A stretch of 64,000 nucleotides of DNA. Origin: an uncultured bacterium (GTDB lineage Bacteria; Myxococcota_A; UBA9042; PHBI01). The position numbers and the translations under genes are program-made. Below are positions 1,760-39,357 of the stretch, piece after piece. The stretch is from positions 9,154 to 73,153 of the forward strand of contig CALHXW010000314.1 in NCBI GenBank assembly GCA_938040325.1, written 5' to 3'. The notes under the pieces were generated by a model that worked only from the letters and a program-made list of their open reading frames with translations, was not told the DNA's origin and searched no databases. How positions within the stretch are numbered: the stretch's first letter is position 1; each line of letters opens with the position of its first letter.

Positions 1760-1767
1760 GGCAAACG

Positions 1768-6552: not shown

Positions 6553-6717
6553 GCGTCCTCCTATGGCGACGTTAACGAGGGCCGAAGCGGATGTCCAGCC
6601 CGACCAAGTCGACGACAAGGGGCCCCTCGGGCCAACGACACGACCCATGCCTCTCGGACCGGAACCCCAAACTCGCGAGCGTCGTGATGGGTTGCCCGCA
6701 GGAGTTTCGACTGCCGT

Positions 6718-16063: not shown

Positions 16064-16771
16064 TCAGCGGCGCAACACCATGAAGAGCCCGTAGCCCACC
16101 GGGAGGCGGACCCCTCGCTCGATGAGCGCGAGCTCGGCGTCGAAGATGTTGCCGCAGATCCGGTCGATCGTCGACGTCGCCGCTGGCTTCGGCTGTCTCC
16201 CCTGCCCCTTCCAGCGCCAGAGCCCCCGCGCTAGCACCGCCGCAGGCATGAGAGCGCCGACATACCAGCCCAGCTCAAGCACCGCTGCCTCCGGTGGCAC
16301 GGCGTCAGCGAGGCGCGCTCGCGTGTAGCGCCGTCGATGCCCCAGCGCCACGTCGTGGTCTGACCAGAGCCACGGATGGGCGGGCACCGTCGCCACAACG
16401 AGGCCGCCCGGTTTGAGGGAATCGAGGCACCACCGAAGCGCCTGCCGGTCGTCGTCGAGGTGCTCGAGGACTTCAAGCGCAACGATGATGTCCCAACTGC
16501 CGGAGTCGCCGATCGCCATGCAGCGGCGAACGCGGTGGTCCGCGGCCAGCAGCCGCCGGGCTCGCTCGCTCGTCTCGGCGACGTCAACCGGCCCGCCGGC
16601 GAGGGCCGACAGCACCGCGAGGTTCGGACCGTCCGCCGCGCCGAGCTCCAAGATGTCGGGCGTGGTGCCTGGCGCGTGCCGCTCGATGAGGTGACGCATG
16701 AGCCGCAGCCGCCCGCGGCGAACCCAGGTCCCGGCGTCGCGCTGCCAGCTATGGAACACCTGCTCATCCAT
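16064..16771 (-). CDS. Class I SAM-dependent methyltransferase
   Basis: Motifs: ILELGAADGPNL (motif I), IVALEVLEHLDDD and LKPGGLVV. The ATG at 16771 overlaps the upstream gene by 8 nt. Confidence 0.85.
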   Translation of the reverse strand: MDEQVFHSWQRDAGTWVRRGRLRLMRHLIERHAPGTTPDILELGAADGPNLAVLSALAGGPVDVAETSERARRLLAADHRVRRCMAIGDSGSWDIIVALEVLEHLDDDRQALRWCLDSLKPGGLVVATVPAHPWLWSDHDVALGHRRRYTRARLADAVPPEAAVLELGWYVGALMPAAVLARGLWRWKGQGRQPKPAATSTIDRICGNIFDAELALIERGVRLPVGYGLFMVLRR

Positions 16772-17501
16772 CGACGGGCTCCGCGGCTGAGCGACACACC
16801 CGCAGCGCGCTGAGCAACATGACGCCGTAGACCGCTCCCTGATAGAAGCTTCGGATGTCAGGTCGCGGGGTGCCGTCGGGGTAGAAGTAGTCGTTGCTGC
16901 CGCTGCCCCGTGGGAGGACGATGTCGCTGAGCTGACTCAGCACCACGACCGCGCAAAAGAGCAGCGTGTCGTGACGCAAGCGCGTGACAGGCGCCAGCCA
17001 GCGCTCGCTCGCCGGCCACAAACGCATCATTGCCGGCAGACCGCACCAGATGGCGACCGCCGGTACCGCGAGCGTCAGCGACAGGTCGCTGTACCAGGCC
17101 GAGCCGGTGCGGGGCGCCGTGTGTAGCGAGTCACCGCCGACCCAGCCCTGGAGGAGGCTGTGGCCGAGATCGACGCCGTAGACCGCCCCCCAGTGAATCT
17201 CCTCAAGCAGGAGCAGCAGGGCATAGAGCGTGAGCAACACGCTGAGGCCGATGGCGAGCCACGATGGACCGCGCCCGATGCGCCGCCGACGCCCGAGCAG
17301 CCGCATGCTCGCGACGCCCCAAGCACCGGCGGCCGCAAGGAGCACAACGTGAGACGCGTGCTCGATCGGCCCCTCCGTCATCGACAAGAGCAAAAGCGGC
17401 TCGGGCCACACGTACACGAGCAGCCACCACGTCAGCGACACGCCGACGACGATGGCCAGCGGCGTGCTGCGGATCCCAGACGGCGTCGGGTTGTCGGTCA
17501 A
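16764..17501 (-). CDS. Polytopic membrane protein, unknown function
   Basis: About 6-7 hydrophobic segments. A candidate TTG start at 17501 forms a TTGA overlap with the upstream rSAM stop (17498-17501). The track start is 17579. Confidence 0.55.
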   Translation of the reverse strand: MTDNPTPSGIRSTPLAIVVGVSLTWWLLVYVWPEPLLLLSMTEGPIEHASHVVLLAAAGAWGVASMRLLGRRRRIGRGPSWLAIGLSVLLTLYALLLLLEEIHWGAVYGVDLGHSLLQGWVGGDSLHTAPRTGSAWYSDLSLTLAVPAVAIWCGLPAMMRLWPASERWLAPVTRLRHDTLLFCAVVVLSQLSDIVLPRGSGSNDYFYPDGTPRPDIRSFYQGAVYGVMLLSALRVCRSAAEPVDG

Positions 17502-18481
17502 CGAAGCCAGGCGGCGTGAAGCGCTGACGGCGATCCAGAGAGGATCAGGTTCATCTCCACACGGGTGTCGCACCAGCAAGCCCGGCAGCTGTCGGGCACT
17601 AAGGCCTTAAACGCCTCGCCAAAGGACTCCGTCGCGAGCGTGCGGCCCGTGGGCTTGCGCACGAGGTTTCCGCAGCCGTAGAGGCTGCCGTCTGGCTCGA
17701 TGCGAGCGTACACCACGCCTGCACTGCACGTGATCGGGGCATAGACCGGCCAGTTCCGAAGGTACTCAAGGCCCGCGATCGAGTTCTGGATGCGCTTGTC
17801 GCCGGCCTTACGGCGGGCGATGAGGTCGTCGACAAACCGGTGCCACTCCTCGGGCTTCGGCGTCAGAGGCGCGAGGTCACGGCGCCCCATGGCCGGGGTG
17901 TCGCGAACGATGGTGAAGCCCGCCTTTCCACCCAGAGATCCCGCCAGTTCCAGCACGGCCTCTGCTTCGCCGAGGTTGTGGCGCGTGACCACCATGTGAA
18001 GATCGACCGACAGCCCCGCTGACCGCGCGGCGCGCGCACCGGTGACGGCGCGCTGGTGCGCCTTGGCGCCACGCTGGATGTCGTGCGCGACGGGCCCGCC
18101 ATCGACGCTCACGGTGAGTCCCGCGAGCTTGCCGGTCAGCGCGCCCAGGTGCTTCGGCACCAGCAGGCCGTTGCTGTGGATGGTGACGTCAACACCCGCG
18201 GCAGCGAGCAGATCCACGATCGGCAGGCACATCGGATGAACGAGGGGCTCCCCCCCGGTGAGCGCCACCCGCTGAACCCCAGCGTCCACCATCTCGCGGG
18301 CGACCTCCAGCATGCGCTCGTTGGGCATCTCGCTTGAGCCGCGATCCCAGCGTCCGCAGTAGTCACACGAGAGGTTGCAGGTGTCGGTCAGCGACCAGCC
18401 CACAAAGACCGGCCGCCGGCGACCAAACACGGCTGCGGCCGCCATCTGGGCGCCCATGCGAATCTTTGTGGGGAGCTTCAT
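17498..18481 (-). CDS. Radical SAM enzyme with twitch/SPASM-like domain (paralog 3)
   Basis: ATG at 18481 is preceded by GGAGACG. Motifs: LTDTCNLSCDYC (CxxxCxxC), GGEPLVHP, CSAGVVYARIEPDGSLYGC (C-x12-G-x4-C) and CRACWC. The track start at 18838 is an Arg/Pro-rich extension. Confidence 0.9.
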   Translation of the reverse strand: MKLPTKIRMGAQMAAAAVFGRRRPVFVGWSLTDTCNLSCDYCGRWDRGSSEMPNERMLEVAREMVDAGVQRVALTGGEPLVHPMCLPIVDLLAAAGVDVTIHSNGLLVPKHLGALTGKLAGLTVSVDGGPVAHDIQRGAKAHQRAVTGARAARSAGLSVDLHMVVTRHNLGEAEAVLELAGSLGGKAGFTIVRDTPAMGRRDLAPLTPKPEEWHRFVDDLIARRKAGDKRIQNSIAGLEYLRNWPVYAPITCSAGVVYARIEPDGSLYGCGNLVRKPTGRTLATESFGEAFKALVPDSCRACWCDTRVEMNLILSGSPSALHAAWLR

Positions 18482-18656
18482 CGTCTCCGCCCGTGACGGC
18501 AAGGCCGCCCAAGGGAACAAAGGGGTGCAGGCAGAGCGCCCGCTGTCGGCCCACAGCGTAGCACCGTCGGCGAAGGCGGAGCAACGGGCAAGCCGGCGCG
18601 CTGCCGGCCCGTGAGACGGCCGCACCCGCTGCGAAGACGGGCACCGAGAGCATGGT

Positions 18657-19715
18657 GTGATATGGTCGAGGCGGTCGCGCATGGTGGCGCCTGACTCCGA
18701 CGAGGTCTTCGACACCCCGATGAGACGAACACAACAAGCAGGCGCGGCACTCGGGATGGCGCGGGCACGCTTCCTCGGCCAGCGAGTGCCTGTAGCGGTG
18801 CGCATCAACCTCAACAACCGCTGCCACTCGCGCTGCACCTACTGCTCGTTTTGGTACACGCCGACCGAGGAGATGAGCACCTCCGAGGTCCGCAGCATCA
18901 TCGCCCAGCTAGGCCGTCTCGGCACCAAGCGCCTGTCGCTCAGCGGTGGCGAGCCGATGCTCCGCAAGGACCTTGGGGAGCTGATCGAGACGGCTGTTGC
19001 AGCCGGGATCTCGGTCGGACTCAACACGACAGGCTACCTCTTTCGGCGTCGCATCGCCGCGCTGCGATCGCTTGACCTCGTGAAGTTCTCCGTAGACGGC
19101 CCCCGCGAGGTCCATGATGCGGTTCGCGGCCGCGACGGCGCCTTCGACGAGCTGCTCGACGCCATCGAGGTTGCGAAGTCCGAGGGACTGCGTTTCTCGT
19201 TTGCCTTTACGATGACCGGCGACAGCCTCAGCGCCGTCCCTTGGGCCATCGACTTCGCCGAGCAGCACGGCACCTTCGTGGCGTTTCAGCCCGTGATGGC
19301 CCACGAACACGCCAGCGCTGACGTGGAAGCCAACTTTCCGTCCGAGAGCGACTACCGCGACACGATCGCACTCCTCGAGCGGGAGAAGCGACGCCGACCC
19401 AAGACGATCCGCAACTCCCTGGGGGGCCTCGACCACATCAGGAGTTGGCCCAAGATCAGCGGCCTGAAGTGCTGGGCGGGTGACGTGTTTATGGTCATTG
19501 AGCCCAACGGCGACCTGCTGCCATGCGACCGCATCACCTACGACAGGCCGACGCCCAACTGCCGGACGACATCTGTTCGCGACGCGCTAGCGCAGCTGCC
19601 GCCGGTGGACTGCGCTGGCTGCGGGTTTTGCGGCTCGGTGGAGCTCAACCTCCTCATGGCCGGCAAGGTCGCCGACGTGGTCCCCGCGGTGCTCGGCGTG
19701 ACCTCAAGCCGGTGA
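18657..19715 (+). CDS. Radical SAM enzyme with twitch/SPASM-like domain (paralog 4)
   Basis: Motifs: NLNNRCHSRCTYC (CxxxCxxC), GGEPMLRKD, CWAGDVFMVIEPNGDLLPC (C-x12-G-x4-C) and CAGCGFCGS. By comparison with the paralogs, the likely true start is ATG 18681 or 18720. Confidence 0.9.
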   Translation: MIWSRRSRMVAPDSDEVFDTPMRRTQQAGAALGMARARFLGQRVPVAVRINLNNRCHSRCTYCSFWYTPTEEMSTSEVRSIIAQLGRLGTKRLSLSGGEPMLRKDLGELIETAVAAGISVGLNTTGYLFRRRIAALRSLDLVKFSVDGPREVHDAVRGRDGAFDELLDAIEVAKSEGLRFSFAFTMTGDSLSAVPWAIDFAEQHGTFVAFQPVMAHEHASADVEANFPSESDYRDTIALLEREKRRRPKTIRNSLGGLDHIRSWPKISGLKCWAGDVFMVIEPNGDLLPCDRITYDRPTPNCRTTSVRDALAQLPPVDCAGCGFCGSVELNLLMAGKVADVVPAVLGVTSSR

Positions 19716-20710
19716 AGCGCGCGCTCGTCACGGGCGCTGCCGGACACATCGGTGGCTGGGTGACACGGCTGCTGCTCGAGCGCGGCGTCTCGGTCACGGC
19801 CCTCGATCGTCGGCCAGTCAACGTCGAGGCGCTGCGCCATCCAAGCCACGGCGCGTCGCTTCGCGCCATCACGGGCGACGTCCGCAAGCCCGATGCCCTC
19901 AAGCGGGCACTCGACGTCGGGCCGCCCGACGCGATCTTTCACCTTGCGATGGAGCTCTGGACGGGCACGGAGTCGCCGAGCGAGCTCACCAGCATTGCCG
20001 TCGACGGGATCGACATCCTCCTGGACGTCGTGGCCTCCATGAGCCCCAGCCCGCGCGTCGTCTACACGAGTTCCTGCGCAACGCTGGGCGTCAGCCGTGA
20101 CCCGACAGCGCCGTGCACCGAGCGGGACCGCGCGCAACACGCCAGCACGCCCTACGTGGCGGCCAAGCTCGCCGCTGAAGCGCGGCTACGTGAGCGGCTC
20201 GAGGAGGCACGCGATGTCGATGTCGTGACCACCCTGCCCTCGATGACCATTGGCCCCCGCGACCCACGCGGCACACCGTCGAACAGGCGGGTCGCTGCCA
20301 TGCTCAAGAGCTGGTGGAACCCCCTCACGCTCGCAGGCGGTCTCAACGTTGTCGACGTTCGCGACGTGGCCCTTGGCCACCTCCAAGCGTTCGACCATGG
20401 CGCAACAGGCGCACGCTACATCCTCGGCGGCCACAACCTCACGTTTGCGGAGCTCACACGCGCCTGCCAGCGAGCGGCCGGCTGGCGCGCGCTCCCCCCG
20501 GTCTCCCTGCCCGCACGGCTCTTGCTGCCAGGTGTGCGAGCGGTCCAAGCGCTGACAACCCGACTGGGAAGGCGCCCCTTCGTCACGACCGAGCAGGTCG
20601 AGCAGCGCATCGGCCGCTACGCGTTCGTCGACCACAGCCTGGCCAGCGAGCAGCTCGGGTACCGCCCGCGGGCACTTGCGGAGACGCTGCGAGCGGTCGC
20701 AGAGCGATGA
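19712..20710 (+). CDS. NAD-dependent epimerase/dehydratase (SDR family)
   Basis: VKRALVTGAAGHIGGWVTRLLLERG contains the GxxGxxG motif at the N-terminus. The GTG start at 19712 overlaps the rSAM stop (GTGA at 19712-19715). The track start at 19523 lies in the rSAM gene. Confidence 0.85.
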   Translation: MKRALVTGAAGHIGGWVTRLLLERGVSVTALDRRPVNVEALRHPSHGASLRAITGDVRKPDALKRALDVGPPDAIFHLAMELWTGTESPSELTSIAVDGIDILLDVVASMSPSPRVVYTSSCATLGVSRDPTAPCTERDRAQHASTPYVAAKLAAEARLRERLEEARDVDVVTTLPSMTIGPRDPRGTPSNRRVAAMLKSWWNPLTLAGGLNVVDVRDVALGHLQAFDHGATGARYILGGHNLTFAELTRACQRAAGWRALPPVSLPARLLLPGVRAVQALTTRLGRRPFVTTEQVEQRIGRYAFVDHSLASEQLGYRPRALAETLRAVAER

Positions 20711-20720
20711 GTGTAGCGCT

Positions 20721-21704
20721 ATGGTCATGAGCCACGACGCCAACGACCACGGAGGAGCGACCATCCGAGCGAGCGGAACCGACAACGTCATCACGCCAGG
20801 CCTCGTCGCCGTGTGCTCGCGAAGCGTGTCGCGGCACCCGGTGCTGCGCGATCGTCTTGCGGCCCTCGGTGCTCCCCTTCGCCTCAACGACGCGGGCCGG
20901 CGACTGGCGGGCGACGAGCTCCAGCGCTTCCTCTCGGGCGCTCGCCAAGCGATCGTCGGGCTGGAGACCATCGACGAGCAACTCTTGGCGGCCTGCCCGG
21001 ACCTACAGCACGTGTCAAAGGTCGGTGTAGGCACCGACAACCTCGACTTCGATGCTCTCGAGCGGCACGGGGTCAGCGTTCACGTCAGGCCAGGGGTCAA
21101 CCGCCGCAGCGTCGCGGAGCTTGCGATCGCGATGGCCATCTCCCTGCTGCGCCACGTTGGCGTCGCCGATCGCGCCATTCGCTCTGGCGCGTTCCCGCGG
21201 CTCATCGGCCGCGAGCTCAGCGCCTGCACCCTCGGCGTGCTCGGCTGCGGCAACGTCGGCAAGGAGGTCGTCCGGCTTCTCTCCGGCTGGGGCGTCACAC
21301 TCTTGGCCCACGACATCGTCGACTTCCGCGCCTTCTACGCGCGCCACGACGTGGAGGCCGTGTCGCTCCAGGAGCTGCTGGCGCGCTCGGATGTGCTGAC
21401 CCTTCACCTGCCGCTCGACGCCTCGACACGCGGCCTCATCGATGCGGCGGCGCTGTCGGCCATGAAGCCTCAGTCCGTGCTGGTGCAGACCTCGCGTGGC
21501 GGCATCGTTGACGAAGGCGCCTTGGTCGAGGCGCTCGAGACAGGCCACCTCCTCGGCGCCGGACTCGACGTGTTCGCCGCAGAGCCGCCGGCCGGGAGCC
21601 CGCTGCTCGCGTCTGACAAGGTCCTGCTCACCTCTCACCTCGGCGGTAGCACCGAGGAGGCCGTCCTCGCGATGGGCCATGCCGCCATCGATGGGCTCCG
21701 CTGA
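20721..21704 (+). CDS. D-isomer-specific 2-hydroxyacid dehydrogenase (PGDH-like)
   Basis: Motifs: LGVLGCGNVGKEVVRLL (NAD fold), LTLHLPL and VQTSRGGIVDE. ATG at 20721 lies 10 nt after the previous stop. Confidence 0.85.
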   Translation: MVMSHDANDHGGATIRASGTDNVITPGLVAVCSRSVSRHPVLRDRLAALGAPLRLNDAGRRLAGDELQRFLSGARQAIVGLETIDEQLLAACPDLQHVSKVGVGTDNLDFDALERHGVSVHVRPGVNRRSVAELAIAMAISLLRHVGVADRAIRSGAFPRLIGRELSACTLGVLGCGNVGKEVVRLLSGWGVTLLAHDIVDFRAFYARHDVEAVSLQELLARSDVLTLHLPLDASTRGLIDAAALSAMKPQSVLVQTSRGGIVDEGALVEALETGHLLGAGLDVFAAEPPAGSPLLASDKVLLTSHLGGSTEEAVLAMGHAAIDGLR

Positions 21705-21870
21705 GCCTCCGTTGTGGACGGCGACGCATTTAGGTCCGGACGCCGCCGCCTCGGCCGGCGAGGTGTGTCGGGCCCCTTCAAGAAGTCGGACCGAAGAGAT
21801 CGGCGATGGACCGTCGAGGAGATAGGAACGACCTTCCGGCATCTACGACTGGCACGCGCCGCGGCCACTC

Positions 21871-22401
21871 ATGTACGCTCGGCGCGTGACGACGACCTCC
21901 AGCTCCGACCTCGACTCCCGGCTCAAGCGTATTGCGCTGGTCGTGCTCGACGTTGACGGCGTGCTGACCGACGGCCGCATCACCTACCTAGGCCCCGAGG
22001 TCGGCTGGACACGAACCTTCCACGTCCATGACGGCCACGGCATCAAGCTGCTTTTGCGCGCGGGCTTGCCGGTCGCTGTGCTCTCGGCCGACGACAACCC
22101 GGCGATGCGCGCACGCGTCGCCATGCTCGGCATCGAGCACGCCGAGTACGGCTGCGAAGACAAGCGTGACGCACTCACGCGACTGCAGAGCACGTGCGGC
22201 GCGACGGACGCGACGACGCTGTACATGGGCGACGAGCTCTTCGACGTGCCGATCATCGAGCGCGTAGCGGTCGGCGTCTCCGTGGCCGATGCACGCCCCG
22301 AAGCGCGGGCGGCTGCCGATTTTGTGACCGAGCGAGGCGGAGGCCGTGGCGCTGTTCGCGAAGTCATCGACAGGCTCCGTGCTGCCAAAGGGATGGCGTG
22401 A
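21871..22401 (+). CDS. KdsC-like HAD-IIIA phosphatase (3-deoxy-ulosonate phosphate phosphatase family)
   Basis: Motifs: IALVVLDVDGVLTDGRI, HVHDGHGIKLL, LYMGDELFDVPIIERV and GGGRGAVREVIDRL. Confidence 0.85.
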   Translation: MYARRVTTTSSSDLDSRLKRIALVVLDVDGVLTDGRITYLGPEVGWTRTFHVHDGHGIKLLLRAGLPVAVLSADDNPAMRARVAMLGIEHAEYGCEDKRDALTRLQSTCGATDATTLYMGDELFDVPIIERVAVGVSVADARPEARAAADFVTERGGGRGAVREVIDRLRAAKGMA

Positions 22402-23177
22402 CCGACGTGTCTAACACCACGCCGCTCCGACAGGCGCTCCAGACAGGCCCGGCCGTGATCGGGAGCTGGATGGGGCTCGCCGACCCGGCGATCGCCGAGG
22501 TCCTCTGTGAGGCCGGCTGTCGCTGGCTTGGCATTGACCTTGAGCACTCGACGACAACACTCGCTCAGGCCGGAGCTCTCATTCAGACGGCTCGGGCAGC
22601 AGGCGTCGACCCGATGGTGCGACTGTCGACCAACGATGCGACCCAGATCGCTCGGGTCATGGACGCCGGCGCCACCGGGATCATCGTGCCGCACGTCAAC
22701 AGCCGCGCCGACGTCGATCGGGCCTACCAGGCGATGCACTACCCGCCTGCCGGCACGCGTGGCACCGGGCTGTCGCGTGCCCAAGGCTGGGGCGAGCGCT
22801 TCACCGAGTACCGCCAGTGGCTTGGCCGCAGCGCCGTATTGGTCGCTCAGATCGAACACTTCGAGGCGCTCAACCACCTCGACGCCATCTTCAGCCACCC
22901 AGGTCTCGACGCCTACATGATCGGCCCCTACGATCTCTCGTCGTCACTCGGCCACGCCGGCGACTTCACGCCGGAGCCGTTTTTGGCGGCGATCGACAGC
23001 GTCAAAGCCGCCGCCGCCCGGCATGGCGTGGCGGCCGGCTACCACCTCGTCGAGCCGAACCCCGACGAGCTCGCGCGCCTTGTGGCTGAGGGCTACCGGT
23101 TCGTCGCATACAGCGTCGACTTCCGGCTCTTGGCACGCGGCTTTCGGTCAGGACTGGCAGGGCTTGAGCGCTCATGA
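22398..23177 (+). CDS. HpcH/HpaI-family class II (pyruvate) aldolase
   Basis: Motifs: IGSWMGLADPAIAEVLCEAGCRWLGIDLEHS, RLSTNDATQIARVMDAGATGIIVPHV and HYPPAGTRG. The GTG start at 22398 forms a GTGA overlap with the KdsC-like stop. Confidence 0.85.
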   Translation: MTDVSNTTPLRQALQTGPAVIGSWMGLADPAIAEVLCEAGCRWLGIDLEHSTTTLAQAGALIQTARAAGVDPMVRLSTNDATQIARVMDAGATGIIVPHVNSRADVDRAYQAMHYPPAGTRGTGLSRAQGWGERFTEYRQWLGRSAVLVAQIEHFEALNHLDAIFSHPGLDAYMIGPYDLSSSLGHAGDFTPEPFLAAIDSVKAAAARHGVAAGYHLVEPNPDELARLVAEGYRFVAYSVDFRLLARGFRSGLAGLERS

Positions 23178-24154
23178 CCGCTCATCGGCCACCGATCCGG
23201 CTGGGTATCATCGGGGCCGGCGTGATGGGTGCCCGCCGTGAGGCCGCCGCGCTCGCTGACCCTAGGTTTGCCCACGTGGCAACCGTGGACGGTCAAGCCG
23301 CCGCGGACGACATGCTGCGCTCCGACGCGCTAGACGCCGTCGTGATCGCGGTGACTCCAGACGCGGCGCCTGGTCTCACGGCAACCGCGCTCGAACGTGG
23401 TCTGCATGTCCTGTGCGAGAAGCCGCCAGCCCGATCGCTGGCTGAGCTTGGTCCGGTCATCGATGCCGCCCGGCGGCACCCGGACACACAGCTCGCGTTC
23501 GGCTTCAACCACCGGCACCACGGCTCCGTCGTTGCGGCTCGCGCGCTCGTCGCGAGCGGGCGCTACGGTACCGTTGTCGGCATGCGTGGCGTCTACGGCA
23601 AACGCGCCGACGGCATGTCTGGCTGGCGCACGGAGCCGGCGACGAGTGGCGGCGGTATCCTGCGCGACCAAGGTGTTCACATGGTCGACCTGATGCATGT
23701 CTTTGCGGGCGGGCCCTTCACCGACGTCACCGGGCGCATCTCGCACACCCACCAAGCGGACGTCGAGGACAGCGCCTGGGCGCTCCTGACGACCGACACA
23801 GGCGTTGTTGCCACGCTCTGCTCGAGCGCGGTCGAGGCCCGAGAGATCTTCCGGCTCGAGCTGATGTTGAGCGACGGCCGCTTAACGCTCGCAGGCATCT
23901 TGAGTGGGTCTGGCGCTTACGCACCCGAGCGCCTCATCGCCGAGCGCCCGGGCGCCGAGCCGGCGGTCACGTCCTACGCGGTCGACCACTCGTGGGCGCA
24001 CGAGCTCAGCGCGTTCGGCGACGCGATTGAGCGCGGGACCGCCGTCGCGGACGGCACGCTGTCGCAGGCTGCGGCGGCCACCCGAGTCGTCGATGGTATC
24101 TATGCGTCAGCGAGCCGGCGCGACAGTGCGCGCCGGGAAGGAACACGAGCATGA
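23174..24154 (+). CDS. Gfo/Idh/MocA-family NAD(P) oxidoreductase
   Basis: Motifs: IRLGIIGAGVMG and HVLCEKPPA. ATGA overlap with the upstream stop at 23174-23177. Confidence 0.85.
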   Translation: MTAHRPPIRLGIIGAGVMGARREAAALADPRFAHVATVDGQAAADDMLRSDALDAVVIAVTPDAAPGLTATALERGLHVLCEKPPARSLAELGPVIDAARRHPDTQLAFGFNHRHHGSVVAARALVASGRYGTVVGMRGVYGKRADGMSGWRTEPATSGGGILRDQGVHMVDLMHVFAGGPFTDVTGRISHTHQADVEDSAWALLTTDTGVVATLCSSAVEAREIFRLELMLSDGRLTLAGILSGSGAYAPERLIAERPGAEPAVTSYAVDHSWAHELSAFGDAIERGTAVADGTLSQAAAATRVVDGIYASASRRDSARREGTRA

Positions 24155-24771
24155 GCCAAACCACGGACTGGTTTGACGCCACCGACGGACCCGAGGCGTT
24201 TGCCAGCGCTTACCTCTCCCACGTCCGCGGCGTGCTGGCGGCGGTCGACCGCGCAAGCGTCGCTGCCGCCATCGAGCTGCTTGACGCGACCCGAACCGCC
24301 GCCGGACGGGTGTGGGTCATCGGCAACGGTGGAAGCGCCGCCGCCGCCAGTCACTTCGCCAACGACCTGGTTGCCGTCGTTGGCTCTCCGCCCTTCACCG
24401 CGTTCAGCCTCACCGACAACCCCGCTGTCCTCACGGCCATCGCCAACGACCACGGCTACGCCGACGTCTTTGCGCGACAGCTCCACGGCCGGTGCCGCGC
24501 CGGCGACCTCGTGGTCGCGATCAGCGCGTCCGGCAACTCCGGCAACGTCCTCCGAGCCGTCGACGTGGCGCACGCTTGCGGTGCGCATGTGCTCGCGCTC
24601 TCTGGGTTTGACGGTGGTGGCGCGCTTGCTGCGGCGGCTGACGCCGCGGTGATCGTCCCGTCTCGTGCAGGCGAGTACGGCCCTGTGGAGGGAACGTTCT
24701 CCGTGCTCTTGCACGTCATAGCGAACTACCTGGCTCTGAAGGCGGCACCGACGGAGCCTGGTGATGCCTAG
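24151..24771 (+). CDS. SIS-domain sugar-phosphate isomerase (GmhA-like, no CBS domains)
   Basis: Motifs: VWVIGNGGSAAAASHFANDL and VAISASGNSGNVL. ATGA overlap at 24151-24154. Confidence 0.85.
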   Translation: MSQTTDWFDATDGPEAFASAYLSHVRGVLAAVDRASVAAAIELLDATRTAAGRVWVIGNGGSAAAASHFANDLVAVVGSPPFTAFSLTDNPAVLTAIANDHGYADVFARQLHGRCRAGDLVVAISASGNSGNVLRAVDVAHACGAHVLALSGFDGGGALAAAADAAVIVPSRAGEYGPVEGTFSVLLHVIANYLALKAAPTEPGDA

Positions 24772-25447
24772 CCCCCTCACGGCGCTCTTGATCATCAAGG
24801 CTCACAGCGTCCGCGTACCGAACAAGAACTTCCGCGAGCTCGCTGGCAAGCCCCTGTGTCGCCACATCCTTGCAACCCTTGAGCAGGTCAGCGACATCAC
24901 CCGCGTCGTCATCGACACCGACGCGCGCAGCCAGCTTGCCGCGGCTGGGGTCCATGACCGCGTCAGCGCAGGCGACCAGCGGCCGGTCATCATCGACCGC
25001 GAGCCCGCGCTCCTGGGCGATGAAGTCACGGCCAACGCGCTCATCGCGTCCATGCTCGGCCGGGTGGACGGCGAGCACTTTCTCATGACCCATGTCACCA
25101 ATCCCCTGCTCTCGGCCGACACCATCCGGAGCGCTATCGCCGCGTGGTGGACCGCTCTAGCCGCCGGTACGGCCGACTCGCTCATGTCGGTCACGAGACA
25201 CCAGGCGCGCTTCTACGATGCCGACGGCCAGCCGACAAACCACGAGCCAGCACGCTTGCTGCCAACACAACAGCTCCCGGTCCTCTACGAGGAAAACAGC
25301 CTCCTCTACCTCTTCACTCGCACGAGCTTCGCTGAGACGAAGAGCCGCGTGGGTGTCCGCCCGATGTTTTGGCCGACGCCAAAGATCGAGTCGGTCGACA
25401 TCGACACGCCCCAGGACTGGGACGTTGCAGCCGCCCTGCTGAGGTAG
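24764..25447 (+). CDS. Acylneuraminate/3-deoxy-ulosonate cytidylyltransferase family (CTP_transf_3-like)
   Basis: Motifs: ALLIIKAHSVRVPNKNFRELAGKPL at the N-terminus and ESVDIDTPQDWDVAAALL at the C-terminus. ATG at 24764 has GGAG 7 nt upstream and overlaps the SIS gene end. Confidence 0.8.
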   Translation: MPSPLTALLIIKAHSVRVPNKNFRELAGKPLCRHILATLEQVSDITRVVIDTDARSQLAAAGVHDRVSAGDQRPVIIDREPALLGDEVTANALIASMLGRVDGEHFLMTHVTNPLLSADTIRSAIAAWWTALAAGTADSLMSVTRHQARFYDADGQPTNHEPARLLPTQQLPVLYEENSLLYLFTRTSFAETKSRVGVRPMFWPTPKIESVDIDTPQDWDVAAALLR

Positions 25448-25482: not shown

Positions 25483-26115
25483 TCAGCCGGCAGCCTCGGA
25501 CAAGAGCCTGCCGAGACGTCCGGCCACCCGTGTGGCTCGGGCTTCGGCGTCTGCGGGCGCCTTGGTCGGCAGCATCCCGTCGAGCTGCAGCATCGCCAGC
25601 CCGTGCACGGCGGCCCATGCCAGCTCGACGAGCTCAGCGAGCGGGATGTGAGCGCCGGTTCCTTCGCCTTGCGCCCGCTTGAGGGCCGAGGGCAGAAACG
25701 AGGCGGCGCGCCGCCTCGCCGTCGCCAGCTCGGGCGATGTGTCGAGCGAGGGTTGGGTTCGCCCGAACATCAACCTGAAGAGCTCCGGCTCGTCGGCAGC
25801 AAACCGCACGTAGGCCACGCCCAGCGACACCACTTCATCAATCGCGGCTCGCGGCACTCCAGCCGCTAGGTCGTCGTGATGCTGCTGGTGTGCGGCATGC
25901 AGCGTCGTGTTGAAGAGCGTAAACCCTTCCGTCAGCACCGCCGCGATCAGCGCCTCTCGGTCTGCGAAGTGTCGGTAGGGTGCACCGGTGCTGACCCCAG
26001 CGCGCCGCGCCAGGGCACGCAGCGACAGCTTCTCGACCCCGTCCTCTCGAATGGTGGCGAGTGCCGCTTTGACAAGCGTCTGCCGGAGGCTGCCGTGGTG
26101 GTACCTGTCTTTCAC
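25483..26115 (-). CDS. TetR/AcrR-family transcriptional regulator
   Basis: HTH segment LSLRALARRAGVSTGAPYRHFADREAL. GTG start at 26115 with GGAGAG upstream. Only the last 210 codons of the 697-aa track ORF are credible. Confidence 0.85.
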   Translation of the reverse strand: MKDRYHHGSLRQTLVKAALATIREDGVEKLSLRALARRAGVSTGAPYRHFADREALIAAVLTEGFTLFNTTLHAAHQQHHDDLAAGVPRAAIDEVVSLGVAYVRFAADEPELFRLMFGRTQPSLDTSPELATARRRAASFLPSALKRAQGEGTGAHIPLAELVELAWAAVHGLAMLQLDGMLPTKAPADAEARATRVAGRLGRLLSEAAG

Positions 26116-26149
26116 GTTGTCGCTCTCTCCCGCGGACGCCCGCCCGGCG

Positions 26150-26238
26150 CTTGCGGCAGCCCGAGCCGCAAGACTCGGTCCAAAGGTTGCATCCCGCGCC
26201 AGGATCGGCAACAGTCGCCGCCCGTAAGCACCGCTTAC
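26150..26238. promoter_or_regulatory. Two perfect palindromes in the TetR / oxidoreductase divergent intergenic region (candidate operators)
   Basis: CTTGCGGC-N7-GCCGCAAG at 26150-26172, and GTAAGC-acc-GCTTAC at 26224-26238, which lies just upstream of the AAGGAG RBS at 26247. Confidence 0.4.
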
Positions 26239-26259
26239 ATTGGCGTAAGGAGCGAGGGT

Positions 26260-27834
26260 TTGGGCAAGCAGGCTGTGGTGATTGGGACGGGCGCCGGGGG
26301 ACTGACCGCGGCGGTCGCGCTTGCGCAGGACGGCTATGACGTCACAGCGCTTGAGCGCGAGCGGCAGCTCGGCGGGTTTCTCAACCCCTTCAAGCGACGA
26401 AAGTACCACTTCGACCCTGGCGTTCACTACGTCGGGCAGTGCTCGCCTGGCGGTCAGATTCACCGCGTGCTGGACCGCTGCGGCATCGACGCAGAGGCGC
26501 TCTTTGCCCCTATGGACCAAGACGGCTACGACGTCTTGCGCTTCCCAGACTTCGAGTTCCGCGTGCCTCAAGGAATCGACGCCTATCGCGATCGTCTCGC
26601 GGCGGCGTTTCCGTCGGACACGCGCGCAATCGACCGCCTCGCTGCCGACATGCACGCGCTCAACACCGTCCTCCACCGCCGCTCTCGAGGGAGAAAGGTC
26701 CGCGCGTTGCCGCGCTTGGCGCCGCTCGCGCTCACCACCTTTGGCAAGTACCTTAGCCGCCTCACCCGCAACCCCAAGCTCCGCTCGGTGATCGCGGCGC
26801 AGGGCGGCGACTATGGTCTCCCTCCGAGCCGGACCCCGGCGCTGCTGGGCCTTGGACTCAACGTGCACTTCCTCGACCGCGGGAGCTTCTTTCCGCGCGG
26901 AGGCAGTGGCTCGCTGCGCGACGCCCTTGTCGCCGCCGGTCAGTCCCTTGGCGTTGTCTACCATCGGCGTGCGCCGGTCGCCGCCATCGAGCACGCCCGA
27001 GGCCGCGTCACTGGCGTCAGGACCGAGGCCGGACAGCGCTTCGCTGCGGATGTGGTGGTCAGCGCGATCGACCCCACGCTGACCTACGGACGACTGCTCG
27101 ATGAGAGCGCCATCTCCGCTCGGATGCAGCGCAAGGTCGCACGTAACATCACCTCCGTCGGCTCGCTCTGCCTGTACTACGGCATGAAACGCGACCTCCG
27201 CCAGCACGGCCTCGGGGCAGCCAACGTGTGGGACTATCCGACCTGGGACGTCGAGAACGCGTTCGCGTATGCGGTCGGCGACAGCGCTCGGGACGTGCCG
27301 GACGACCATGCCTTCTTCCTGTCGCCCAACTCCCTCAAAGACGACACGGGAGCGATGGCGCCGAGCGGCTGCAGCACGCTCGAGGTGGTCACGCTGACGT
27401 CGTTTGCGCCATACGCGCAGTGGGCAGACCAGCGCTCGTTCAAGCGGAGCGCGGGCTATCACGAGCTCAAAGCACAGGCCGCCGACGCCCTGCGCGCATC
27501 GGTCGACCGCCGCTGGCCTGGGCTCATCGGCGACGTGGAGGTGGAGGAGGTCTCCACCCCGGTCACCAACAATCACTTCGCCGGCGTGGTCGACGGCGGG
27601 ATCTACGGCCCGGCGGCGGTGCCGGAGCAGTTCGGGCCCAACGCCTACCGAGCGCGCGGCACGCTGACAGGACTCTACTTGGCTGGGGCTGGCGTCATTG
27701 GACCAGGTGTCGCTCCGAGCCTCGCCTCCGGGCTGATGGCGGCAAAGGCCGTGCGAAACGACCGGTCACGTGGCTTTGCCAACCGCGCTCGCAGCGCATC
27801 ACGCGCCACGCTCCGCCAGCTCAAGCTCGCCTGA
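26260..27834 (+). CDS. NAD(P)/FAD-dependent oxidoreductase, phytoene desaturase / RetSat-like family
   Basis: AVVIGTGAGGLTAAVALAQDGYDVTALERERQLGG is a GxGxxG dinucleotide fold. TTG start at 26260 lies 7 nt after AAGGAG. The upstream part of the 652-aa track ORF is antisense to the TetR gene. Confidence 0.85.
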   Translation: MGKQAVVIGTGAGGLTAAVALAQDGYDVTALERERQLGGFLNPFKRRKYHFDPGVHYVGQCSPGGQIHRVLDRCGIDAEALFAPMDQDGYDVLRFPDFEFRVPQGIDAYRDRLAAAFPSDTRAIDRLAADMHALNTVLHRRSRGRKVRALPRLAPLALTTFGKYLSRLTRNPKLRSVIAAQGGDYGLPPSRTPALLGLGLNVHFLDRGSFFPRGGSGSLRDALVAAGQSLGVVYHRRAPVAAIEHARGRVTGVRTEAGQRFAADVVVSAIDPTLTYGRLLDESAISARMQRKVARNITSVGSLCLYYGMKRDLRQHGLGAANVWDYPTWDVENAFAYAVGDSARDVPDDHAFFLSPNSLKDDTGAMAPSGCSTLEVVTLTSFAPYAQWADQRSFKRSAGYHELKAQAADALRASVDRRWPGLIGDVEVEEVSTPVTNNHFAGVVDGGIYGPAAVPEQFGPNAYRARGTLTGLYLAGAGVIGPGVAPSLASGLMAAKAVRNDRSRGFANRARSASRATLRQLKLA

Positions 27835-29035: not shown

Positions 29036-30349
29036 TCACGGGATCGGTACGACGCCACGAGCACCGAAGCGCTCGACGTAGCCACGCCGAAGCCCCAAGC
29101 AACGAGCGCGCATCGAGCAGCCATCGCAGGGCTCAACGAAGACGCGGTCTGTGCGGTCCCACGCGCCGACATCAGCCACATGCAGTGACCGAACGGCGTC
29201 CACATGGTCGGGGTAGACGCACGGCGGGAACCCGCAGGTCCCCCCCACATCCACCGTCACGCCGGCCGACGCCAAGGTGCCGATCGCCTCCGAGAGCGGC
29301 ACACGGACTTCGTCGAGGGGCACAAGGCTCGCGTGATAGTGGGCGGCGTCAAAGCTCGGCGCGGGAAATGAGTAGGTCACGGAGCCCACGCGGCCGGCCG
29401 AGGCCGGCGTCACGAAGCGGTCCACGATCGTCTTGGCGTGCTGAGGCAAGCCGCCGACGGTGTCGGCATTGACCAGCGCGTTGAGGTCCACGTGGATACC
29501 AGCGGCCAGGGCATTGGCGATGCCCGCCATCGTGTGGGCCCAGGTTCCAGGCGCACGCGTGAGCTGATCGCTGATGCCTGCGTCGACCGAGTGAAGCGAC
29601 ACAAAGAGCCCGTCGACGCCGGCCTTCGCCAACCCGACAGCCAGGCTCTCGCGTCGCAGCTGCACGGCGTTCGTCTGGAGCTGTACCCGCAGTCCGTGGT
29701 GCTGTGTGGCGCGCTCGACAAGACCCACAAGCCCTCGAAACAAGGTCGGCTCCCCACCGGTGATGATGAGGCTCGCGATGCCTTGGGCTGCCAGCTCGTC
29801 GAGCCAGGTGGTGTAGAGTGCGTCGGGCGCGCCCGGCCAGCTGCGGTCCTGCCAGCAGAAGCCACAGTCCTGATTGCACCGGAACCCAAGACGCAGGTTG
29901 CCAACCTTGTGGGCGCCAACGCCTGTGACCTGACGAAACATCCAGTCTGAGACGTCGGTGAGCGCGGCGTGTTCGCGCACCGCTGCCCACAGCCCGGCCG
30001 CGAGGTCTTCGGTGTCGGCTCGTGCTGCGATCGTGGCGATCACGCGACGGCCAAGCGCAACCCGTGACGCCGGCGTGCTTGGTGGCGTTCTTAGGCCAAC
30101 CGCGTAGGTCCTGCGAGCCAGCTTTGGACGATGGAGCGTGCCGGGCGTGCCGAGGTCGATGTCGAGCGTGCCGTGCTCGCCCAGCGTGAGCTGCACGTGA
30201 AGAGCCACGGCTTCGTCGCTGCACGTGCGGACGCTCCAAACCAGCGGGATGGTCTCGCTCGCGCCGACAAGCTCCCGGAGAGCCGTCGTCACAGCCTCAC
30301 TCCGGGTTCCGACCCACGACGTCAGCGGCGGCGACTCGCGGGTCACCAC
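29036..30349 (-). CDS. Radical SAM enzyme with ~150-aa N-terminal unknown domain and C-terminal Cys cluster
   Basis: Motifs: LGFRCNQDCGFCWQD (CxxxCxxC) and ITGGEPTLF, with C-terminal GGTCGFPPC...EPCDGCSMRARC. GTG start at 30349 (uncertain). Confidence 0.8.
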   Translation of the reverse strand: MVTRESPPLTSWVGTRSEAVTTALRELVGASETIPLVWSVRTCSDEAVALHVQLTLGEHGTLDIDLGTPGTLHRPKLARRTYAVGLRTPPSTPASRVALGRRVIATIAARADTEDLAAGLWAAVREHAALTDVSDWMFRQVTGVGAHKVGNLRLGFRCNQDCGFCWQDRSWPGAPDALYTTWLDELAAQGIASLIITGGEPTLFRGLVGLVERATQHHGLRVQLQTNAVQLRRESLAVGLAKAGVDGLFVSLHSVDAGISDQLTRAPGTWAHTMAGIANALAAGIHVDLNALVNADTVGGLPQHAKTIVDRFVTPASAGRVGSVTYSFPAPSFDAAHYHASLVPLDEVRVPLSEAIGTLASAGVTVDVGGTCGFPPCVYPDHVDAVRSLHVADVGAWDRTDRVFVEPCDGCSMRARCLGLRRGYVERFGARGVVPIP

Positions 30350-37416: not shown

Positions 37417-37440
37417 GTTCTCTACCCTCCGTGCGCGTCG

Positions 37441-39054: not shown

Positions 39055-39357
39055 GGTCCGAGTACTCCTGCGTCCCGGCGTCTTGATCAACTGCGCCGAG
39101 CCCACGGCGACATAGCAGCGCCGGCGCGGCTTGGAAAGCCAACACTAACGACCACCCGGCCCAAGCAATCGGTCGTTCCTTGGCGATCGTCAGCACGGGG
39201 TTGCCGCACCGGTGGGGGTCGTGAAACGCGAGGCGGAGCCAACCGTTTACAGCGACTTAGAGTTGAAACCGGACGACTGCTTGTTTGTCGCGAGGATGTC
39301 GTGCAAACCCCGAGTGCCACCGCACATCAACTGCCCCTCCGGCAAAGGTTGTCCGCC

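Follow-up and report, generated by a model that had tools for sequence, protein, structure and literature searches.

An operon predicted to make a CMP-activated sugar acid by way of a pyruvate aldolase in an uncultured bacterium of the Myxococcota_A

Known routes to CMP-activated sugar acids and the layout of the operon

The CMP-Kdo pathway (KdsD, KdsA, KdsC and KdsB) comprises a sugar-phosphate isomerase, a C3 condensation to a 2-keto-3-deoxy acid phosphate, a KdsC-family phosphatase and a CTP_transf_3 cytidylyltransferase, and the same outline can be read in the operon analyzed here. The phosphorylated routes to KDN and sialic acid (KDN-9-P synthase and phosphatase in Bacteroides; NANS, NANP and CMAS in animals) are also similar, with an aldose phosphate joined to a C3 unit, a HAD phosphatase and a NeuA-type cytidylyltransferase. 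Their condensation is carried out irreversibly by a NeuB-type synthase with PEP, whereas the only candidate in the operon is a reversible pyruvate aldolase. A DegT aminotransferase, an SDR enzyme, a GT-B protein, a condensing enzyme and a PseF-like cytidylyltransferase are features that the operon and its surroundings share with the pseudaminic and legionaminic acid pathways (PseB, C, H, G, I, F and LegB, C, H, G, I, F). Yet a NeuB-type synthase and a recognizable PseG, PseH, 4,6-dehydratase or nucleotide-sugar-forming enzyme are absent from this DNA, and sugar-phosphate enzymes are found instead. Finally, a Gfo/Idh/MocA oxidoreductase, a CTP_transf_3 enzyme and an SDR enzyme occur together both here and in the characterized ElaA/ElaB/ElaC cassette of Acinetobacter baumannii KL49, which oxidizes and then re-reduces a CMP-linked ulosonic acid (CMP-nonulosonate; PMC13656337). 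The Ela substrate is legionaminic acid from a NeuB-type synthase (PMC13656337), and no close sequence relation to the operon was detected.

Eight co-directional open reading frames were found at 18657–25447 on the plus strand of the window, which is the whole 64-kb stretch of DNA analyzed (contig CALHXW010000314.1). They encode a radical SAM enzyme (rSAM1), an SDR enzyme, a 2-hydroxyacid dehydrogenase (2HADH), a phosphatase, an HpcH/HpaI aldolase, a Gfo/Idh/MocA oxidoreductase (Gfo), an SIS isomerase and a cytidylyltransferase. Coordinates, gene order and family names given in the initial annotation were all recovered, the families with both Pfam and NCBIfam. The four overlaps it listed (GTGA at 19712 and 22398, ATGA at 23174 and 24151) can be read in the sequence, together with an 11-nt overlap between the SIS and cytidylyltransferase genes, and a 166-bp gap separates the dehydrogenase and phosphatase genes. 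A tblastn search of the entire window revealed no relative of KdsA or NeuB (E > 0.07), in line with the earlier statement that neither type of synthase is visible.

With a probability of roughly 0.55, the product of the operon is a CMP-activated 2-keto-3-deoxy sugar acid (an ulosonic acid) akin to Kdo, KDN or sialic acid, the backbone of which would be built by the pyruvate aldolase. The Kdo- or nonulosonate-like interpretation of the initial annotation holds in outline on comparative evidence, while its parallel to the Kds enzymes proved loose and its placing of the dehydrogenase, the rSAM enzyme and the GT-like gene had to be revised.

Enzymes of the operon and its surroundings

The reactions of class II pyruvate aldolases are reversible and their classical role is catabolic, which weighs against the main reading. 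The metal-dependent enzyme of this class encoded at 22398–23177 (plus strand; Pfam HpcH_HpaI, 101 bits) is the proposed C–C bond-forming step and would stand in for the non-homologous KdsA of the CMP-Kdo pathway. The catalytic residues of HpaI are all retained in the alignment, with E49/H50, R75, Q151/E153 and D179 matching HpaI E44/H45, R70, Q147/E149 and D175. Although fold and catalytic residues are common to HpaI, GarL and RhmA, identity to these is only ~35%, and the aldolase belongs to a distinct subfamily with 45–58% internal identity across phyla and 32–37% identity to annotated hpaI-type genes on plasmids. HpaI, GarL and RhmA are found in degradation operons, whereas the subfamily occurs with cytidylyltransferases in glycan loci.

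The cytidylyltransferase (24761–25447, plus strand; Pfam CTP_transf_3, 41 bits against a cut-off of 22.6) is NeuA/PseF-like, of the CMP-ulosonate synthetase type. A NeuA is its closest relative of known structure (E 4e-08), and its Lys, QQLP, N..Y and DID motifs align with those of the N. meningitidis CMP-Neu5Ac synthetase. It falls below every curated equivalog cut-off (best NCBIfam model PseF, 49 bits against 206) and has Lys and Val in place of the NeuA P-loop residues Arg12 and Lys16, both of which count against the main reading. A KdsB-like identity was considered and rejected.

The HAD phosphatase (21871–22401, plus strand) passes the KdsC-family model TIGR01670 (114 bits, cut-off 107) and is of the phospho-ulosonate phosphatase type. 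It scores 131 bits with NF007019 (cut-off 208) and 76 bits with the KDN-9-P phosphatase model, and orthologues with 62–63% identity are found in relatives L035, L085 and L088. In L086 no KdsC gene was detected and the cytidylyltransferase carries a fused HAD domain, which places a dephosphorylation step next to CMP activation.

The single-domain SIS sugar-phosphate isomerase (24151–24771, plus strand; SIS_2, 62 bits) is GmhA-like, with scores of 102–111 bits for GmhA models that lie under their cut-offs (209–276). Compared with GmhA structures, HFAEEL has become HFANDL and a Gln ligand Glu, while the C-terminal His is retained. The replacement of the catalytic Glu of GmhA by Asp counts against the main reading. 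A KdsD-like identity was rejected, since this is a single-domain GmhA relative with no CBS domains. The KdsD/KdsC/KdsB mirror seen initially is a loose one; KdsB-like cytidylyltransferases are the type found in most relatives from the broad family.

The operon also differs from the CMP-Kdo pathway in its additional PGDH-like dehydrogenase, Gfo, SDR and rSAM enzymes. The D-isomer 2HADH (20721–21704, plus strand; Pfam 2-Hacid_dh_C, 169 bits) has phosphoglycerate dehydrogenases (PGDHs) as its nearest solved structures (E 7e-48) and scores 213 bits with TIGR01327 (cut-off 454). Among proteins of known structure, the Gfo protein (23174–24154, plus strand; assigned by Pfam) is closest to inositol and sugar 3-dehydrogenases or ketoreductases. 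The extended SDR enzyme (19712–20710, plus strand; Pfam Epimerase, 99 bits), of the epimerase/dehydratase/reductase type, starts with a GTG that overlaps the rSAM1 stop codon. Its best model is HpnA (TIGR03466, 193 bits, cut-off 368), to which it is related without being a member, and the Myxococcota relatives yielded no orthologue.

rSAM1 (18657–19715, plus strand; Pfam Radical_SAM 90 bits, SPASM 20.6 bits) contains the CxxxCxxC motif and a weak SPASM/twitch-type region with a C-terminal Cys cluster, and its true start is likely the ATG at 18720, judging from homologue length. It is paralogous (28–30% identity) to the divergent rSAM2 (17498–18484, minus strand; Radical_SAM 74 bits), which likely starts near 18484 within a maximal ORF reaching 18838, and to a third rSAM of the same type at 1675–2811 (plus strand; 30% to rSAM1 over 318 residues). 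Counted from the likely starts, the intergenic region 18485–18719 is presumed to be a shared control region; no sigma-70-like match was found in it. The DegT/DnrJ/EryC1 sugar aminotransferase (3866–5191, minus strand; Pfam 198 bits; best NCBIfam model PseC, 114 bits, cut-off 424) lies outside the main operon, as first described.

A 459-aa protein matching no Pfam model is encoded at 11741–13120 on the minus strand (also given as 11741–13222). Its AF2 model (pLDDT 91.4) predicts a GT-B fold with high confidence. Foldseek matched the model to GT-B glycosyltransferases, MurG and UDP-GlcNAc 2-epimerases, the last with the best TM-scores (0.45–0.57). The family has 1,818 representatives, some fused with LPG_synthase_TM (as in P0265), GNAT or methyltransferase domains, and the protein could be either a CMP-sugar transferase or an NDP-sugar hydrolase analog. 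Directly upstream lies the gene for an LPG_synthase_TM (MprF-flippase-like) membrane protein with about eight or more hydrophobic segments (13186–14211, minus strand; Pfam 71 bits). A cytosolic transferase paired with such a flippase-like domain, fused in one relative, resembles MprF (synthase plus flippase), and KpsS/KpsC or WaaA offer a precedent for passing a CMP-activated sugar acid to lipid, but no sequence relation of the GT-B family to the MprF synthase, KpsS/C or WaaA can be detected.

Conservation of the aldolase-cytidylyltransferase module

Searches yielded 2,880 homologues of the aldolase and 540 species-level genomes, bacterial and archaeal. Of 62 aldolase loci flanked on both sides by 4 kb or more, spread over many phyla, 60 have a CTP_transf_3 gene within 10 kb. 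Fifty of these are KdsB-like (passing NF009905; 326 bits, cut-off 255) and ten are of the window type, with none of the 62 loci scoring for both types in this NF009905-based test. The aldolase gene adjoins the cytidylyltransferase gene in most loci, in the order aldolase then KdsB-like, and is often translationally coupled to it. This linkage suggests that the aldolase is functionally tied to the CMP-transferase rather than being a stray catabolic enzyme. Its most constant partner is the PGDH-like dehydrogenase (54 of 62 loci), which is thus a core partner and should not be counted among "three extra redox enzymes" as it was at first. Numerous loci lie in polysaccharide settings that include genes for Wzx, DegT and LIC12162 transferases. 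KdsA is absent from all 90 loci examined. NeuB is found near the aldolase at 18 of the 90, where it could serve their cytidylyltransferase, and this counts against the main reading.

Myxococcota relatives repeatedly carry KdsC-HpcH-Gfo-SIS-2HADH-(GT-B)-CMP-transferase as one unit. Synteny of HpcH-Gfo-SIS-2HADH-GT-B-cytidylyltransferase is kept in at least six further loci (L001, L035, L085, L086, L088 and L089, all with a Gfo orthologue after HpcH), so the arrangement is not due to chance. Cytidylyltransferase orthologues (41–53% identity) close the module in seven relatives. The GT-like gene does end the divergent operon on the minus strand, as initially noted, but is no distant accessory: in 8/8 relatives it sits between 2HADH or HpcH and the cytidylyltransferase, as part of the module core. 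Members of the LPG_synthase_TM family are inside or beside the module in L085 and L086. Being headed by an rSAM enzyme is true of this locus and some relatives (L086, L087, L090) and not of the pathway as such, because rSAM and SDR genes are missing from the stand-alone modules (L001, L035, L088, L089). rSAM1, its two paralogues and DegT recur with the module in some relatives only. An rSAM1 orthologue (53%) adjoins HpcH divergently in L086 and a 36% relative occurs in L087, rSAM2 orthologues (57–60%) are present in L085 and L086, and L086, L087 and L090 each have DegT genes and three rSAM genes (~320–420 aa) beside the module.

Proposed pathway and alternative explanations

From the enzyme families, intact catalytic motifs and conserved linkage observed, we infer a step order, a substrate and an acceptor. 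The GmhA-like isomerase would convert a ketose phosphate to an aldose phosphate, and the aldolase would join this aldehyde to pyruvate, giving a terminally phosphorylated 4-hydroxy-2-oxo acid. The phosphatase would then take off the phosphate and the NeuA/PseF-like enzyme couple CMP to the sugar acid, and these two steps, the latter driven by CTP, could draw the reversible aldol reaction forward. Gfo, SDR, the three rSAM paralogues and DegT may tailor the sugar by oxidation, epimerization, deoxygenation or amination, possibly in part at the CMP-sugar level given the precedent of ElaA (Gfo), ElaB (cytidylyltransferase) and ElaC (SDR). The GT-B protein most likely hands the sugar acid to an acceptor, which may be a membrane lipid that would then be moved across the membrane by the MprF-flippase-like protein. 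The scheme has no step for the PGDH-like dehydrogenase despite its constancy, which counts against it.

A tentative alternative is that the locus follows pseudaminic or legionaminic logic, with the aldolase replacing the NeuB-type synthase. An aldose from a nucleotide sugar would be tailored by SDR, DegT and rSAM enzymes and released by the GT-B protein acting as a hydrolase (a PseG/NeuC/LegG analog); the aldolase would add pyruvate, the PseF-like enzyme would activate the product, and the sugar-phosphate enzymes would serve another branch. This fits with the GT-B/HpcH/CTP_transf_3 triad, invariant in 8/8 relatives and accompanied in L087 and L090 by DegT and three rSAM genes but by none of Gfo, 2HADH and KdsC, and with the epimerase TM-scores and the PseC and PseF best models. 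On the 12-kb contig of L093, a GT-B family member is fused to GNAT in a Pse-like locus with PseB-like, PseC-like, NeuB and CTP_transf_3 genes, and the genes seen there include no further annotated PseG candidate; one of them (518 aa) has no Pfam match. However, genes for nucleotide-sugar formation or a 4,6-dehydratase are missing from the stand-alone seven-gene module (L001, L088, L089), and its sugar-phosphate isomerase and KdsC-type phosphatase point to precursors that are phosphorylated rather than nucleotide-linked. Moreover, L087 and L090 retain an SIS-like gene, the GT-B family lacks sequence similarity to PseG or NeuC and has other members fused to or beside lipid-related genes, and no N-acetyltransferase is visible in the window.

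It is unlikely that the cytidylyltransferase activates an ulosonic acid from an ordinary KdsA or NeuB elsewhere in the genome, of which only 64 kb is visible, while the aldolase and the PGDH-like dehydrogenase have a different product, such as a hydroxy-acid substituent or a precursor aldehyde. Such a division would give the dehydrogenase the role it lacks in the main model and would agree with the loci that have NeuB, and glyceroyl and hydroxyacyl groups are known to decorate nonulosonic acids (SugarBase preprint). Against it stand the adjoining, often coupled genes and the 42 of 60 linked loci without NeuB within 10 kb, none of the 60 having KdsA. The module is also found in Dehalococcoidia, Saccharibacteria and archaeal MAGs. 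These groups are not known to have LPS, and Kdo synthesis is therefore not expected in them.

We regard as rather improbable a different alpha-hydroxy or alpha-keto acid as the product, e.g., a 3-hydroxy ulosonic acid from hydroxypyruvate or a cyclized derivative, which would then be CMP-activated. Here the dehydrogenase and phosphatase, both core partners, would lead from 3-phosphoglycerate via phosphohydroxypyruvate to hydroxypyruvate, and HpcH-family "hydroxyketoacid aldolases" (6r62) are among the solved relatives of the aldolase. In a second arrangement within the broad family, a DHQ-synthase-like cyclase (TIGR04425, 506 bits) joins the set, as does a shikimate/quinate dehydrogenase in Leptospira, but the window has no such cyclase, and the known substrates of KdsC-type phosphatases are Kdo-8-P and KDN-9-P. 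Although the characterized enzymes HpaI, GarL and RhmA are catabolic, a catabolic 2-keto-3-deoxy-acid set merely lying beside an unrelated cytidylyltransferase can be dismissed, given the start/stop overlaps, the 60/62 linkage across phyla, the KdsC phosphatase in the operon, the retained HpaI residues and NeuA motifs, the many polysaccharide clusters and the absence of any transporter, dehydratase or kinase expected of a catabolic route.

For the preferred reading, a CMP-activated sugar acid built by an aldolase, no published description of such a pathway was found in the literature. The same uncharacterized aldolase/cytidylyltransferase design is present in several hundred bacterial and archaeal genomes.

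Gene content of the operon

The initial annotation had placed an operon of eight forward-strand genes at 18657–25447, and all eight are present there and match the families it had named. The first gene (18657–19715) encodes a radical SAM protein, rSAM1 (Radical_SAM, 90 bits), with a SPASM/twitch-type Cys cluster. Its translation contains the motif CHSRCTYC (CxxxCxxC) and seven C-terminal Cys residues, and the SPASM model scores 20.6 bits, slightly short of its cut-off of 21.5. It is followed by an extended SDR (19712–20710), which is not a member of the HpnA family (193 vs. a cut-off of 368), and by a D-2-hydroxyacid dehydrogenase (20721–21704) whose nearest relatives are phosphoglycerate dehydrogenases (TIGR01327, 213 vs. 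454; PDB match, E = 7e-48), hence PGDH-like. The remaining genes encode a KdsC-family phosphatase (21871–22401), an HpcH/HpaI aldolase (22398–23177; PF03328, 100.7 bits vs. a gathering score of 25), a Gfo/Idh/MocA oxidoreductase (23174–24154), a SIS isomerase (24151–24771; SIS_2, 62 bits) and a CTP_transf_3 cytidylyltransferase (24761–25447; PF02348, 41.4 bits vs. a gathering score of 22.6). The four start/stop overlaps claimed for the operon (GTGA, GTGA, ATGA, and ATGA) can all be read in the sequence. This tight packing is broken by a 166-bp non-coding gap (21705–21870) between the dehydrogenase and phosphatase genes, in which a promoter/terminator scan of the operon found no consensus. A link to hopanoids, suggested by HpnA-, HpnH- and HpnL-like names in the window, was rejected because the scores are far under the cut-offs and the window has no squalene-hopene cyclase.

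To our knowledge, all characterized routes to Kdo, KDN, and sialic, pseudaminic and legionaminic acids use a PEP-dependent synthase of the KdsA/NeuB type. The operon had been described as lacking such an enzyme, and tblastn with E. coli KdsA and a NeuB representative indeed found no relative in the 64 kb (E > 0.07). The isomerase, phosphatase and cytidylyltransferase had further been said to mirror KdsD, KdsC and KdsB, which holds for the phosphatase only. This protein passes TIGR01670 (114.2 vs. 106.95) and contains LDVDGVLTDG, which fits the KdsC motif DxDGV(L)TD; the stricter KdsC equivalog NF007019 is not reached (131 vs. 208).

The SIS protein (206 aa) has a single SIS_2 domain and no CBS domain, rather than the SIS and tandem CBS domains of KdsD/KpsF. 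The GmhA models score best, at 102–111 bits under cut-offs of 209–276, and the best PDB match has E = 1e-25. Compared with GmhA, HFAEEL has become HFANDL, the catalytic Glu is replaced by Asp and the Gln ligand by Glu, while both His residues are kept. The protein is a single-domain GmhA relative and not KdsD-like. That it acts as a true GmhA on a heptose phosphate, giving a C10 product, is possible yet unsupported, since the score stays below the GmhA cut-off and the catalytic Glu is absent.

The cytidylyltransferase is nearest to NeuA and PseF and scores below the equivalog cut-offs (PseF, 49 vs. 206; KdsB models, 17–21 vs. 155–255). In the alignment with the Neisseria meningitidis enzyme, K22 of the N-terminal loop, QQLP, N..Y and DID are matched; Arg12 is replaced by Lys and Lys16 by Val. 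We take the roles of these motifs (the Arg/Lys loop, QQLP, Asn..Tyr, and Asp-x-Asp) to be those of the published N. meningitidis structure.

The Gfo enzyme resembles sugar and inositol dehydrogenases in a generic way only. ElaABC is a characterized cassette of a Gfo enzyme, a cytidylyltransferase and an SDR that oxidizes and then re-reduces a CMP-linked nonulosonic acid (PMC13656337). Orthology of the Gfo enzyme to ElaA was rejected, as ElaA is absent among its sequence matches.

The aldolase and its linkage to cytidylyltransferases

The residues H50, R75, Q151, E153, and D179 of the aldolase align with the catalytic and metal-binding residues H45, R70, Q147, E149, and D175 of HpaI, and E49 aligns with HpaI E44. 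The catalytic residues are invariant across 26 members of the subfamily. The protein scores under the NCBIfam equivalog cut-offs for the catabolic enzymes HpaI (158 vs. 369), GarL (125–127 vs. 393–407) and RhmA (112 vs. 441). Among the candidates scored, 2,880 homologs were found at E ≤ 1e-10, and 540 genomes contained relatives in a pattern scan that took a single genome for each species. The best 80 of these 540, which share 43–58% identity with the window aldolase, come from Proteobacteria, Desulfobacterota, Nitrospinota, Bacteroidota, Verrucomicrobiota, Planctomycetota, Elusimicrobiota, Firmicutes, Dehalococcoidia and Saccharibacteria, and also include two archaeal MAGs. A search of plasmids with the aldolase returned only annotated hpaI-type genes (32–37% identity).

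Linkage was counted in 62 loci whose aldolase gene is flanked by 4 kb or more on each side, by clustering their ORFs and then recounting by tblastn. A CTP_transf_3 gene is present in 60 of the 62, being KdsB-like in 50 (a representative passes NF009905, 326 vs. 255) and of the NeuA/PseF-like type of the window in 10; the two types never occur together in the tblastn test (0 of 62). An orthologous 2-hydroxyacid dehydrogenase is found in 54 loci and NeuB in 17, while KdsA was detected by tblastn in none of the 62. In most loci the aldolase and cytidylyltransferase genes are adjacent. This linkage and adjacency rule out a catabolic role for the aldolase. Because it is tied to CTP_transf_3 genes across loci, the aldolase is the best candidate for C–C bond formation in the synthesis of a CMP-activated acid. 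The central idea of the initial annotation, a CMP-sugar-acid pathway in which a pyruvate aldolase replaces the KdsA/NeuB synthase, is supported in outline by these comparisons, and its details need correcting.

The broad aldolase family has two layouts, ALD-KdsB-2HADH-SDR-HAD(-cyclase) and ALD-KdsB-(MT)-Gfo-SDR-DHQ-synthase-like-2HADH-SIS, where ALD is the aldolase and 2HADH the PGDH-like dehydrogenase. Both are often located inside polysaccharide loci that also contain genes for Wzx, DegT and LIC12162 transferases, and the ElaABC-like order KdsB-like-Gfo-SDR is common. The DHQ-synthase-like gene matches TIGR04425 with 506 bits. The layout with this cyclase (L012, L015, L021, L033, L042, L049, L065, L067, L068, L071, L072, and L084) often has an additional inositol monophosphatase or 6-phosphogluconolactonase-like gene, and the corresponding locus of Leptospira has a shikimate/quinate dehydrogenase gene. 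The cyclase layout is a hint that the acid receiving CMP is carbocyclic and quinate-like.

The PGDH-like dehydrogenase is nearly universal, and the pathway model gives it no step. It could act with the phosphatase to supply hydroxypyruvate; it may also oxidize a phospho-aldonate or act on the distal carboxylate end.

In the literature searched we found no paper or functional description of an aldolase-based CMP-sugar pathway. A preprint on Leptospira interrogans (bioRxiv 10.1101/771931) lists this gene set upstream of the rfb locus and offers no explanation for it, and the SugarBase preprint describes higher-carbon CMP-ulosonic acids in Magnetospirillum with no occurrence of an aldolase in its text. 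The pathway is thus uncharacterized in all sources searched, and is a widespread variant of the known CMP-sugar-acid route.

A conserved module and its GT-B protein

The block (KdsC)-HpcH-Gfo-SIS-2HADH-X-cytidylyltransferase is found in the same order in six loci on Myxococcota-type metagenome contigs (L001, L035, L085, L086, L088, and L089). Protein X of these relatives (≈430 aa, no Pfam match) shares 37–46% identity with the product of the last gene of the divergent operon in the window, located on the reverse strand (ORF 11741–13222, gene called at 11741–13120, 459 aa). As the two are orthologs, the two divergent operons of the window belong together. In L086 there is no separate KdsC gene, and a HAD phosphatase domain is instead fused to the cytidylyltransferase (11284–12591, 435 aa). 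This fusion places dephosphorylation directly before CMP activation, an order shared with the pathways to Kdo, KDN and animal sialic acid.

In two further loci, L087 and L090, the genes for HpcH, X, the cytidylyltransferase and a SIS-like protein are retained and those for Gfo, 2HADH and KdsC are missing; each locus has instead three radical SAM genes (≈320–420 aa) and one or two DegT genes. Both gene sets are present in L086 and in the window. An ortholog of rSAM1 (53%) is located divergently beside HpcH in L086, and orthologs of rSAM2 (17498–18484 on the reverse strand in the window) occur in L085 and L086 (57–60%). The two proteins and the radical SAM protein encoded at 1675–2811 are paralogs with 28–30% identity. 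The radical SAM enzymes are thus a recurrent but optional layer of the module. No counterpart of the HpnA-like SDR turned up in these Myxococcota-type relatives. Beside the radical SAM-containing modules of L087 (371–2020) and L090 (12400–14490 and 15444–17069) lie genes for large membrane proteins, whose matches are weak to PMT_2 or clear to YfhO (GT-C type). Such proteins would fit extracytoplasmic transfer from a lipid-linked donor; the window has no recognized counterpart.

An AlphaFold model of X built from 34 homologs is of high confidence (pLDDT 91.4, pTM 0.90) and has a GT-B fold with two Rossmann-like domains. Foldseek matched it to GT-B enzymes, namely GT1 natural-product glycosyltransferases, GT28 MurG and Epimerase_2 UDP-GlcNAc 2-epimerases (probability 1.00, TM 0.31–0.57). 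A profile search of the family against PDB sequences gave no solved relative. A full HMMER scan gave 1,818 cluster representatives, making this a sizeable family without a Pfam model; in 34 members searched with Pfam, Glyco_transf_4 matched weakly in eight and the PseG/NeuC families (Glyco_tran_28_C and Epimerase_2) in none. KGAEG, RLHPN and GNSS are invariant motifs, presumably similar to D/E-D/E-G, HP and SS in the bacterial sialyltransferases (GT38/52/80). Alignment of the family with the LIC12162 transferases by hhalign reached a probability of only 53%.

Two roles were considered for X, of which we tentatively favor a transferase acting on a lipid. The main rival is a nucleotide-sugar hydrolase with a PseG/NeuC-like role. 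It draws on a GNAT-fused family member (P0250, L093 8001–9863) in a locus with PseB-like, PseC-like, NeuB and CTP_transf_3 genes, where no other PseG candidate is annotated and one 518-aa gene has no match. We prefer a transferase on account of the stand-alone module, which uses sugar phosphates together with a KdsC-type phosphatase. A lipid acceptor is suggested by the family member P0265 (L092 10001–12151), which is fused to an LPG_synthase_TM domain, and by an LPG_synthase_TM protein that adjoins X in the window (13186–14211) and is also encoded within or next to the module of L085 and L086. A further member ends a PAP2-PLDc (cardiolipin-synthase-like) operon in L095. A methyltransferase fusion was also seen among the fusion proteins examined (P0265, P0250, and P0230).

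Genomic surroundings and implications

The sugar module lies in a radical SAM-rich cluster; between 1.6 and 30.4 kb we counted nine genes of the Radical_SAM type. These include genes at 1675–2811, 2778–4016, 17498–18838 (maximal ORF), 18657–19715 and 29036–30349, a Tes/TrsS-like gene with an N-terminal Zn ribbon (5188–6648; 122–127 bits, far under the cut-offs), a gene for a B12-binding protein of 953 aa (6718–9579; weak Pfam match, 28 bits vs. a cut-off of 29.5) and a HemN/ChuW-like gene (14078–15997). The cluster further contains genes for a UbiA prenyltransferase (881–1759), a five-TM protein (16764–17579) and two methyltransferases. A modified lipid is one possibility for its product. The GC content is 59–62% in the first 12 kb, 67–69% at 12–30 kb and ≈65% thereafter, and given this step the sugar and radical SAM core and the left part of the cluster may have separate histories.

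Convergent with the cytidylyltransferase gene, a TetR regulator is encoded in the C-terminal part of a long reverse-strand ORF (25483–27576), followed on the forward strand by a flavoenzyme of the CrtI/phytoene-desaturase family (within 25483–27834, Rossmann motif from ≈26270). The two maximal ORFs overlap, so most of the long reverse-strand ORF is not a gene. An 893-aa protein (30430–33111) has a signal-anchor-like N-terminus, a VanY D-Ala-D-Ala carboxypeptidase domain and MopE-type metal-binding repeats. The genes at 33694–39105 (HMG-CoA-lyase-like, biotin carboxyl carrier and methylcrotonyl-CoA carboxylase beta subunit) form an ordinary leucine-catabolism set, and the beta subunit, which shares 80% identity with proteins of Myxococcota MAGs, places the window in that phylum.

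A bolder, joint reading is a NeuB/KdsA-independent route to CMP-ulosonic acids that relies on a class II pyruvate aldolase together with a PGDH-like dehydrogenase and would be present in several hundred species of many bacterial phyla and some archaea, Leptospira included. In this Myxococcota lineage its product would be reshaped by the three radical SAM paralogs and an aminotransferase and put on a membrane lipid by the GT-B protein, and an MprF-type flippase would export the lipid. We give this joint reading roughly one chance in five. If the joint reading is true, the anionic glycolipid head group would belong to a new class, and the cluster that makes it would have a UbiA prenyltransferase and a Tes/TrsS-like enzyme besides its nine or more radical SAM genes.

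Genome screens for ulosonic acid sugars look for a synthase of the KdsA/NeuB type. If a pyruvate aldolase replaces that enzyme, such screens would therefore overlook a whole set of surface sugar acids, in organisms from Leptospira and Legionella relatives to Dehalococcoidia, Saccharibacteria and archaea. As a compact set of seven genes in conserved order, the module would provide new enzymes for sugar acid synthesis as well as the first functional handle on an unannotated GT-B family of ≈1,800 representative sequences.
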